Of a stretch of DNA of 40,559 nt, positions 25,108 through 26,584 are shown piece by piece. A program made the position numbers and the translations under genes. The DNA is taken from positions 1-40,559 of IMG/VR virus record IMGVR_UViG_2541047813_000005; one strand, written 5' to 3'. Positions within the stretch are counted from its first letter, which is position 1; every line of letters begins with the position of its first letter. Source of the stretch: a virus. Lineage: Duplodnaviria; Heunggongvirae; Uroviricota; Caudoviricetes. A model generated the notes under the pieces. The model ran no database searches. It saw nothing but the letters and a program-made list of their open reading frames with translations, and was not told the DNA's origin.

Positions 25108-25144
25108 TTGACATTTAACGCACTAATTATTACCTTTCAGGTAA
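25108..25144 (+). promoter_or_regulatory. Promoter-like TTGACA plus operator-like dyad ATTACC-TTTCA-GGTAAG upstream of tRNA/cargo unit
   Basis: TTGACA at 25108..25113; 'TAATTATTACC-N5-GGTAA' at 25124..25144, nearly identical to the early-left promoter region at 35311..35331. Confidence 0.4.
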
Positions 25145-25466
25145 GCAAAGAGTTCATTCCGGTTATTAACCTGACTGGCTTGTCGTTAAATTGAACAGGT
25201 GGGGTGAGCTTTTATTTTGAGCAGTACGGTGTATGGCACATGCGCCGATAGCGGTCTGGATACGTTTAAGTGGCACCCTCCCTTGCTCGGGCAAACGAAC
25301 CAGGTAGCCGGAATGTGCAAGTCGAGCGGTTTTATTCCGCGCACGGGGATTCACCATCCCGGCGATTCGGTGTGACACCTCGGAAGAGACGAGGGTGCAA
25401 CGATGAGAGCATTTATGGAGCCGCGACAAAGTGTGGTGCCTTAACAGGCTAAGTGCTCTCAGCGTT

Positions 25467-25543
25467 GTGGCATTAGCTCAGTTGGACAGAGCAACCGCCT
25501 TCTAAGCGGTTGGTCGCAGGTTCGAATCCTGCATGCCGCGCCA
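25467..25543 (+). tRNA. tRNA-Arg (anticodon UCU)
   Basis: Cloverleaf folded by hand: acceptor GTGGCAT/ATGCCGC, D-arm GCTC..GAGC, anticodon stem ACCGC/GCGGT with loop CTTCTAA, T-arm GCAGG-TTCGAAT-CCTGC, encoded CCA. Confidence 0.85.
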
Positions 25544-25586
25544 GAATCACGCCTAAGGACCGTGATGCCAGAAGTTCCAGGGGCTT

Positions 25587-25628
25587 GGCGGTGATGGTTT
25601 CCCTTGAAGGACTATCACCGCCCTTTTT
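25587..25628 (+). terminator. Hairpin terminator downstream of tRNA
   Basis: ggcggtgat/atcaccgcc 9-bp stem with 18-nt loop followed by TTTTT. Confidence 0.5.
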
Positions 25629-25706
25629 ACAGCAGGACGCCATTGCGATGACTTCATGCTGTAAACCCGTACAGCCACGGAAGGCATAACTCATTGCTTC
25701 CAGTTC

Positions 25707-25730
25707 GCCCGGTTCGCCGGGCATTTTTTT
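25707..25730 (+). terminator. Rho-independent terminator/attenuator
   Basis: gcccgg-ttcg-ccgggc hairpin followed by ATTTTTTT. Confidence 0.6.
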
Positions 25731-25746
25731 GCTTGATGACCGCAAA

Positions 25747-25761
25747 TTACCTTAAAGGTAT
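25747..25761. promoter_or_regulatory. Operator-like dyad TTACC-TTAAA-GGTAT abutting the start codon of the cargo gene
   Basis: Ends 4 nt before ATG 25766; same arrangement as site 32167..32181. Confidence 0.45.
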
Positions 25762-25765
25762 AATC

Positions 25766-26584
25766 ATGAAAAACTTCAAGGTAATTAGCATGTTTGAATC
25801 GTTTAAAGAGCTGTTTTTATCTACTGCCAATACTGCCGTGAATCGAGCCAAAAACCCTGTGCTTGGTGCTTTTGTTATGTCCTGGTGCGCCTTCAACTGG
25901 AAATCAATTCTTTATCTATTTTTTAGCAAATCAAACATAATAGATAAAATTTCATATATCTCAGATAACAGCACATGGAAAACTGTTATGTTTTATCCAT
26001 GCTTATCTGTAATTGCTATCTGCTGCCTATTACCATGGGTAAACAATATCATTAACGTATGGCAAGCAAAGCCTCTTGATAATAATGACTCAATCGAAAA
26101 TCACCTGAAGGCAAGAAAAATCCAGCGTGAAACCAGACTGCAGAGGTTATTGGCTAAAAAAGATGTTACATACGACAAAGTTAAGACTGGCGCGGAAAAA
26201 GACATCCAAGAGATGAAAGAAGAGATTATTCGATCAAAGAATAGTATGGGGGAATTGACTGCCGAGTTGAAAGCTAAAGATGACGAATTGAGATCCGCCA
26301 GTGCTCAGTTAGCAGCTCTAAATCATTCATTAAAAGAGATATCGGAAACTCTGGGAAGAATGAATGAGGCATATAAGACCCTCCAAAATGATTTCGACGA
26401 ATACAAACTCAAATACCCTGAAAAATCTCAAATAAAAAGCCTTGCACTTGGCAACGGCCAAACAATTAGCAACTTTTTGGAGCAACACAACTTATCCGGA
26501 TTAAAATCTGGTAAGCCAAACGTTTTTAATAACTTTGGTGTTCTATCTGGATTATCAGGTTTCGATGATAAAAATAAAGACTAA
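25766..26584 (+). CDS. Cargo (moron) protein: N-terminal hydrophobic/membrane region plus long coiled coil; function unknown, candidate exclusion/abortive-infection factor
   Basis: ORF 25694..26584, probable start ATG 25766; AT-rich codon usage unlike flanking late genes; opposite strand; stop overlaps terL stop convergently. Confidence 0.5.
   Translation: MKNFKVISMFESFKELFLSTANTAVNRAKNPVLGAFVMSWCAFNWKSILYLFFSKSNIIDKISYISDNSTWKTVMFYPCLSVIAICCLLPWVNNIINVWQAKPLDNNDSIENHLKARKIQRETRLQRLLAKKDVTYDKVKTGAEKDIQEMKEEIIRSKNSMGELTAELKAKDDELRSASAQLAALNHSLKEISETLGRMNEAYKTLQNDFDEYKLKYPEKSQIKSLALGNGQTISNFLEQHNLSGLKSGKPNVFNNFGVLSGLSGFDDKNKD

Follow-up and report, generated by a model that had tools for sequence, protein, structure and literature searches.

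What does a long noncoding leader do among the late genes of a prophage, and does it serve the gene that lies behind it? The window analysed here is the whole 40,559-nucleotide stretch of IMG/VR record IMGVR_UViG_2541047813_000005, a phiV10/epsilon15-like (Uetakevirus) prophage whose structural genes are 96-98% identical to those of phiV10 and its relatives. Its plus strand carries a promoter, a leader, a tRNA-Arg gene and two terminators (T1 and T2), followed by an accessory or "cargo" gene. Since this unit lies between terL and a gp3-like gene, both of them on the minus strand, it runs antisense to the late transcription flow. Our analysis indicates that the leader contains a conserved structured RNA, which we call the core and which occurs in three unrelated kinds of phage. 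We consider it likely that positions 25109-25730 form one early, repressor-controlled noncoding unit built around this RNA family, and that the cargo gene of the window is separately promoted.

A conserved structured RNA in the leader

The leader had originally been described as about 320 nt of GC-rich noncoding sequence. Its 322 nt are indeed noncoding, and they are only mildly rich in G+C (52.6%, against 48.7% for the window). They do not form a plain leader, since alignment and covariation reveal a conserved structured RNA with five helices, one of them a pseudoknot (Table 1). The alignments contain the invariant words GGCACAUG, AGCGGUC, GGUAGCCGGAAUGUGCAAG, UCACCA, GGCG, GGUGUGAC and GGAAGAG, with compensating stems between them. 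The five-helix model (H1, P2, P4, pseudoknot and P5) was tested on 33 representatives of less than 90% identity, in which 95.6% of cells are paired, compared with 27-49% once the partners are displaced by 1-3 columns. Twelve of the 25 pairs change on both sides, all five helices show compensatory changes, and the score of the model was reached by none of 500 shuffles. The pseudoknot is the weakest helix because it rests on one covarying pair, which goes from C-G to A-U in three sequences. An alternative pairing proposed by RNAalifold, GGCACAU with AUGUGC, was not adopted over H1, which shows covariation; both of its strands are invariant, so that it cannot be judged in this way, and it may represent a further tertiary contact. 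The frequent G-U pairs, which would be A-C mismatches on the opposite strand, place the RNA on the plus strand.

The window holds a single copy of the core (nhmmer E = 7e-35). No Rfam 15 family matches 25144-25466, either at the gathering score or at E up to 10, with GOLLD, ROOL, C4, riboswitches and ribozymes all included in the comparison, and the corresponding leader of phage mEp460 is likewise without any Rfam 15 family match. No annotated feature is found at the core in any of the 40 E. coli matches listed. We found no published description of the RNA in the literature, an earlier one being possible, with most subscription journals outside the search. A riboswitch was considered and rejected: P5 has no U-run after it, and core and T1 are kept apart by a tRNA or by an insert whose length varies from 0 to ~130 nt. 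Judging from its conservation and covariation, the core is an unannotated RNA family.

Promoter, operators and terminators

The original prediction had placed a TTGACA with an operator dyad at the head of the unit, and further on a tRNA-Arg(UCU) and two hairpin terminators, the second ending at 25730. All of these stand: the hexamer and dyad are present, the tRNA is called by ARAGORN and by Rfam, and both terminators emerge from a terminator scan with compensatory changes in their stems (Table 1). With its hexamers 17 nt apart and an operator that recurs at the immunity region, the first of these elements has the features of a sigma-70 promoter under repressor control, and transcription is predicted to start near 25144. 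Across 37 distinct variants, drawn from E. coli, Salmonella, Klebsiella and other hosts, the spacer diverges in sequence, but its length of 17 nt, the -35 and -10 hexamers and the dyad are conserved. At two mismatches or fewer, the window contains 15 instances of TTACCT-N3-AGGTAA against 0.85 expected, a count that none of 100 shuffles reached, so the dyad at the early promoter (O1) is not a chance palindrome. These operator-type sites cluster at the immunity region: six of them flank a helix-turn-helix (HTH) repressor gene (34612-35196), and another two are found at positions 32167 and 32229. A homologous dyad is annotated as a repressor site in the epsilon15 GenBank record. Operator-like dyads are also seen outside the immunity region, at 8183-8197 (one mismatch) and, inside terS, at 28667-28681 (two mismatches).

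T1 and T2 each combine a G+C-rich hairpin with a U-run, as is expected of intrinsic terminators, and their stems covary in an alignment of ten diverged relatives. The leaders of lambdoid phages carry a U-run hairpin homologous to T1. Two further observations concern the terminators. The stretch 25679-25730, which comprises the GGAAG...CUUCC hairpin and T2, is conserved in relatives, so that a small Hfq-type RNA between the terminators is possible; a RyhB-like match at 25676-25730 (CUCAUUGCUUCCAGU against CACAUUGCUUCCAGU in the 3' half of RyhB) was set aside as not significant (Rfam E = 1.4). A YCCUUG motif is common to the apical loop of P2 and the loop of T1 in several lineages.

Distribution of the core RNA

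A BLAST search with 25100-25470 finds matches in Uetakeviruses, in lambdoid phages (mEp460, cdtI, Stx2c and Stx2a phages, in noncoding DNA at ~82% identity) and in the P1-type phages P1, P7 and D6 (~80% identity). The core stretch used as query, 25226-25466, is 100% identical to E. coli NZ_CP095086.1, and the core element is present in 1837 of 5426 complete E. coli genomes (34%). Exact matches to the invariant 19-mer number more than 120 in IMG/VR and 24 in species-representative genomes, nearly all of the latter in Enterobacteriaceae, and the hosts range from Escherichia to a phage recorded on Stenotrophomonas. At less than 90% identity the core is represented by 43 sequences. One locus alone (L027, 3997-4957) has two copies, which share a strand and are separated by ~800 bp.

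In the lambdoid loci the core starts 94-156 nt past the stop codon of a CI-type repressor gene with HTH and S24 domains, on the same strand, and these repressor genes are of at least four sequence types. Both mEp460 and Stx2a_WGPS2 show, in this order, a cI terminator, two operator dyads with a PL-like promoter, the core with module B, an insert, the U-run hairpin homologous to T1, more structured RNA, and finally the ribosome-binding site (RBS) of the first early-left gene, the whole leader extending over 600-800 nt without an open reading frame (ORF). No N gene is annotated in either phage, a promoter scan of the lambdoids examined finds none between the leader and the first gene, and in Stx2a_WGPS2 the early-left operon runs on to xis and int. 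The P1 copy, aligned over 163 nt at ~80% identity, belongs to the ban operon, which C1 controls; it is found 2.3 kb from the promoter, between trnI and ban, and has the tRNA-Ile2 gene 14-16 nt upstream. As read from the gene order, the core heads a repressor-controlled early operon in the Uetakeviruses and in these lambdoids, and in P1 it lies within one.

A variable gene slot in relatives

How are the genes behind the unit expressed? In phiV10, epsilon15, SPN1S, the Klebsiella phage ST512-KPC3phi13.3 and ~20 further variants, the T-run of T2 is followed within 3-16 nt by AAGGTGA(GATT)ATG, a conserved RBS with its start codon. Since this leaves no promoter space behind T2, the cargo genes of these relatives would be transcribed only by read-through of T2 and T1, and read-through as the usual mode in the family is well supported by the arrangement of the sequences. 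At least eight unrelated cargo genes occupy the slot across phages, including PHROGs of no known function and a lipoprotein. One of them, represented by phiV10p03 and epsilon15p50, belongs to PF13876, the family of the anti-CBASS sponge Acb4 (bioRxiv 10.1101/2024.12.30.630793), and PF11195 (Tad2-like, anti-Thoeris) is also found in the slot of relatives. A slot that swaps the Acb4 and Tad2 families with unknown genes offers a practical hunting place for anti-defence genes.

Possible function of the core RNA

We propose the following scheme. The unit would be silent in a lysogen, the promoter at 25109 firing early after infection or induction, and the transcript would fold as module A, core and module B. 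Cleavage by RNase P at 25466/25467 would free an RNA of ~320 nt and the tRNA, which would supply the reading of the rare AGA codon. Most transcripts would stop at T1 or T2, and the promoterless genes that follow T2 in the family, often anti-defence sponges, would be reached by read-through. The core RNA would render RNA polymerase resistant to termination in cis, as the put RNA of phage HK022 does.

Cis-acting processive antitermination is our leading candidate for the role of the core, although we advance it tentatively. It is favoured because the core is the first conserved structure after the early promoter in Uetakeviruses and in N-less lambdoids, because in both it always precedes a conserved terminator ahead of promoterless genes, and because the lambdoids examined show nothing else that would carry transcription to int. 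Moreover, the action of put RNA is independent of its proximity to the terminator (PMC9378689), and such distance independence would suit the variable inserts found here. In the N-less phages (one Stx2a phage; the Stx2c phages carry the core too) the core occupies the position that nutL and the N leader have in lambda, and this placement may explain the expression of their early-left operon. Should RNA polymerase be what the core acts on, only one other phage RNA is known to work in this protein-independent way. More tentatively still, the core might found a new and widespread class of RNA-only processive antiterminators that carry transcription in Uetakeviruses and N-less lambdoids past built-in terminators and insulate early genes and an anti-defence slot, which would then be accessible only to transcripts bearing the RNA.

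A number of points weigh against this scheme. The -10 hexamer, TACCTT, is weak, and promoters, processing and terminator efficiencies are all predicted. The Klebsiella phage SopranoGao is an exception to the early-operon placement, its core lying after the lysis genes near the genome end, and in P1 the core is followed by ban without an intervening terminator. Each phage has one core copy, whereas HK022 has put in both early operons. In epsilon15 a deletion between TTCCCTTGATGCT repeats (L005 2560-2600, compared with SPN1S, L006 1975-2395) has removed most of the core, the tRNA and the 5' half of T1, and yet the phage retains T2 and an intact Acb4-family gene, which implies that the core is dispensable and that T2 may simply leak. 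A lax terminator counter, which missed large-loop hairpins, scored 32 of 42 loci in the sense direction downstream of the core and 33 of 42 in the antisense direction; this outcome points the same way and was not used as evidence.

Could the core instead be a free-standing, trans-acting stable RNA, released by tRNA processing or ended at T1 and working on the host in early infection, perhaps as a sponge or decoy for a defence system or RNA-binding factor, with ordinary, somewhat leaky terminators? The core abuts tRNAs in two unrelated contexts, tRNA-Ile2 in P1 and tRNA-Arg here, which would provide ready processing sites; it stands at varied genome positions, it accompanies anti-defence genes and a rare-codon tRNA, epsilon15 does without it, and the very strong conservation of its unpaired stretches would suit a conserved host partner. 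Set against this is the fact that, in the lambdoids examined, the leader terminator stands ahead of the entire early-left operon as far as int and no promoter was found between them, and the placement of a conserved RBS right on the T-run of a strong terminator argues for intended read-through. We regard a trans-acting RNA as the main rival, somewhat less likely than antitermination in cis; the core may be an early-expressed anti-defence or host-takeover RNA.

Comparison with known systems

Antitermination in cis, as we favour it, brings the core closest to HK022 put RNA, which is likewise a structured RNA placed right after a repressor-controlled early promoter in N-less lambdoids and ahead of intrinsic terminators. 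However, put is ~70 nt long, has two stem-loops and is found in both early operons, whereas the core measures ~170 nt, with five helices including the pseudoknot and with flanking modules. The part of HK022 searched, which may exclude the put sites, gave no sequence match to the core, and membership in the put RNAs was rejected because size and architecture differ.

Like the GOLLD and ROOL RNAs, the present element is a large, elaborately structured noncoding RNA of prophages. GOLLD and ROOL often adjoin tRNA genes or embed tRNAs in a variable region. Unlike them, the core matches no Rfam model, its hosts are Enterobacteria rather than mostly Firmicutes, and the transcript is smaller (~320-590 nt) and has a defined position behind an early promoter.

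The position between PL and the first early-left gene, before terminators, recalls the nutL/N leader of lambda and the boxA of rrn operons. In contrast to those systems, the phages examined have no N gene, and a boxA-like sequence, GCTCTTTAA, stands 3' of the core in three loci only. Those loci, L089 (about 3350-3400), L033 and L046, show it together with a hairpin, and the L089 stretch, TGCTCTTTAACAA, is identical to the rrn boxA. In L089 an AT-rich stretch 3' of the boxA-like sequence resembles an opposite-strand gene insert, beyond which the remainder of the leader resumes. Near the element of the window the boxA pattern [TC]GCTCTT[TA]A has no match, and readings of the module motifs as boxA or boxC were rejected, CAGNUGUGG being the 3' strand of the basal helix of module B.

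The ban operon of P1 (C1-controlled, with a dicF-like RNA, three tRNAs and ban) contains a true homologue of the core in an early operon that is rich in noncoding RNA and controlled by a repressor. It differs in that the P1 copy is without module B and T1 and lies directly before ban. Morons and other anti-defence slots resemble the present one in having a fixed position and variable cargo, here with the Acb4 and Tad2 sponge families, and the cargo of the window has its own promoter as well. They are unlike it in that most cargo here is promoterless and shares an RBS fused to the upstream terminator, in that the window's cassette lacks a terminator, and in that the promoter of the window's cassette carries a phage operator, which would imply expression early in the lytic cycle rather than in the lysogen. 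Thus the tRNA, the terminators, the promoter with its operator and the accessory-gene slot are of known kinds. What is new is the RNA family, its consistent place in early operons, the tRNA as an insert, and the terminator-plus-RBS slot for anti-defence genes.

The cargo gene of this prophage

Does the unit in this window feed its own cargo gene? The original prediction held that there is no room for a promoter between 25730 and ATG 25766, and that the cargo gene is therefore expressed either by regulated read-through of the terminators or from a start further downstream. The first of these statements is not borne out, given ATGACC-17-TATAAT at 25736-25764, which agrees with the consensus at 10 of 12 positions and contains an operator dyad (O2). 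Homology to phiV10 ends exactly at 25730, and the same -35/dyad/-10 arrangement precedes the homologues of the cargo gene in L035 (GTGACT-17-TAAGAT with a perfect dyad), in L156 (from Salmonella, with -10 TAGAAT and a protein 71% identical to that of the window) and in L159-L161. In L159-L161 a terminator lies between T2 and the cassette, and in L161 an Acb4-family gene does too. The recurrence of this promoter ahead of homologues elsewhere argues that the cassette is autonomous, and with a predicted promoter of its own the cargo gene need not be fed by the tRNA unit. All six homologue loci examined have the gene in the slot between the portal gene and terL. L161 (1970-3241) also provides a tandem arrangement, with the Acb4-family gene in the read-through slot, then a terminator, then the membrane/coiled-coil cassette with its own promoter.

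The start codon has to be moved as well. Transcription from the cargo promoter would begin ~7 nt past the -10 hexamer, at about 25771, which lies beyond 25766 and so excludes that ATG. Most homologues are 264 aa long and begin at the residue that corresponds to ATG 25790, L035 and L156 have no upstream ATG, and AAGG stands 8 nt upstream of ATG 25790, with no RBS ahead of ATG 25766. Probably, then, ATG 25766 is unused and ATG 25790 is the true start.

It is improbable that the cargo gene has ATG 25766 as its start and relies solely on transcripts from the promoter at 25109 that pass T1 and T2 by regulated read-through. That ATG is in frame, one gene call uses it (P0001, 272 aa), and read-through is the usual arrangement of the family; but 25736-25764 is occupied by the 10/12 promoter match and its dyad, the same pair is present where a terminator and another gene intervene after T2, and the lengths of the homologues and the AAGG upstream point to 25790. 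Of the two modes originally offered, a downstream start, from the gene's own promoter, applies to the window and read-through applies to the family at large, and the need for read-through falls away for this cargo gene. The original observation was thus mostly right, with an interpretation that fits the family and is wrong for the cargo gene of this window, where the annotated start and regulation need correction.

With O1 and O2 in their respective promoters, unit and cargo would both be off in a lysogen and expressed early. We infer that such operator-controlled cargo departs from the usual idea of lysogenic-conversion cargo. The protein itself has no significant Pfam family, neither Acb4 (PF13876) nor Tad2 (PF11195), and weak PADLOC matches to DndD, LmuB and JetC fall on its coiled coil and were treated as noise.

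The tRNA insertion site

Comparison of relatives indicates that the tRNA is an insert at a variable site of the RNA. In those Uetakeviruses that have a tRNA at this site it is tRNA-Arg. Stenotrophomonas phage BUCT708 has nothing there, and mEp460 (L004 3228-3365) carries a ~130-nt insert that includes an acceptor-like helix and that we read as tRNA-like. It seems that tRNA-like sequences use this RNA as a landing site. In the window the final base of module B is also base 1 of the tRNA. Compensatory changes keep the base of module B paired in SPN1S, mEp460 and the Klebsiella phage. For module A the pairing given in Table 1 was read by hand, and RNAfold pairs the same stretch differently. In SPN1S (L006 2120-2200) T-arm-like fragments, CUGGUUCAAUUCCAG, sit atop module B.

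That the 322 nt are a functionless tRNA precursor leader or tRNA debris, a gene for a small protein, or an RNase III site of the late strand is most improbable: the T-arm-like fragments of SPN1S, the tRNA-like insert of mEp460, ORFs of 52-87 aa that overlap the region, a phiV10 p04 gene annotated nearby (over the tRNA, not the leader) and an RNase III site annotated on the opposite strand in the epsilon15 record each lend something to one of these readings, but 27 of the 43 core representatives are conserved without a nearby tRNA, the variation is compensatory in the helices and lacks codon periodicity, by which the protein-coding reading is rejected, the G-U pairs suit the plus strand only, the 19-nt core is invariant across the whole host range given above, and phiV10p04 overlaps the tRNA gene itself. 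That annotation (PhiV10p04, L002 3174-3425, on the strand opposite to the tRNA-Arg gene) is probably a spurious call.

AGA is a rare codon in E. coli. The cargo gene uses it at 15 per 1000 codons. Of the large structural ORFs checked, most have 6-12 per 1000 and one has 3.6, and terL, terS, the portal gene and the putative major capsid ORF contain none.

Feature coordinates and further observations

Table 1. Features of the unit, the cargo gene and the neighbouring genes, in window coordinates.
Feature	Position	Strand	Basis
Early promoter: -35 TTGACA 25109-25114, 17-nt spacer, -10 TACCTT 25132-25137	25109..25137	+	Sequence; conservation in 37 variants
Operator dyad O1, TTACCTTTCAGGTAA, perfect, overlapping the -10 hexamer and the predicted start	25130..25144		Repeated motif; epsilon15 annotation
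Module A: long hairpin AAGAGUUCAUUC / GGGUGAGCUUUU, loop with GUCGUUAAAU	25148..25213	+	Pairing read by hand; motif recurs in relatives and lambdoid leaders
Core structured RNA, five helices including one pseudoknot	25227..25395	+	Covariation; nhmmer
Core helix H1	25227-25234/25240-25247	+	
Core helix P2, closing a variable arm	25256-25259/25300-25303	+	
Invariant 19-nt GGUAGCCGGAAUGUGCAAG, variable P3 after it	25303-25321	+	
Core helix P4	25346-25349/25357-25360	+	
Core pseudoknot, P4 loop with GGUG	25352-25355/25369-25372	+	
Core helix P5, loop GAAGAGA	25378-25382/25390-25394	+	
Module B: long hairpin CAACG-AU-GAGAGCAUUU / AAGUGCUCUC-AG-CGUUG, variable apical part	25398..25467	+	RNAfold
tRNA-Arg(UCU), CCA encoded	25467..25543	+	ARAGORN (anticodon TCT); Rfam RF00005, 69.4 bits against a cutoff of 29
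Post-tRNA hairpin AUCACG...CGUGAU	25546..25566	+	Sequence; AAUCACG motif conserved in relatives
Terminator 1: 14-bp hairpin 25587-25622 and CUUUUU, about -22 kcal/mol	25587..25628	+	Scan; three covarying pairs
Conserved spacer: hairpin UUUACAGCA/UGCUGUAAA overlapping the T1 U-run; hairpin GGAAG/CUUCC 25679-25701	25629..25706	+	Alignment A4
Terminator 2: GCCCGG-UUCG-CCGGGC (25707-25722), then A and seven U	25707..25730	+	Scan; 100% of cells paired, two covarying pairs
Cargo promoter aTGACc-17-TATAAT, 10/12 consensus	25736..25764	+	Sequence; conserved ahead of homologues
Operator dyad O2, TTACCTTAAAGGTAT, one mismatch, inside the cargo promoter	25747..25761		Motif scan
Cargo gene, 264 aa, two hydrophobic segments and a coiled coil	25790..26584	+	PHROG 4780, E = 6e-137
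terS	28745-28053	minus	
terL	28056-26581	minus	
gp3-like gene, 68 aa	25039-24833	minus	
Portal gene	24818-23139	minus	

Two observations remain that concern the surroundings of the unit. At 26581-26584 the cargo gene and terL overlap in their stop codons, so the cassette has no terminator of its own. As these convergent genes have no terminator between them, late minus-strand transcripts must cross the whole plus-strand unit antisense in order to reach the portal gene. In the Stenotrophomonas phage BUCT708 (L008, about 2300-2450), four GGGAAAGACCGG-like repeats follow downstream of the leader terminator.

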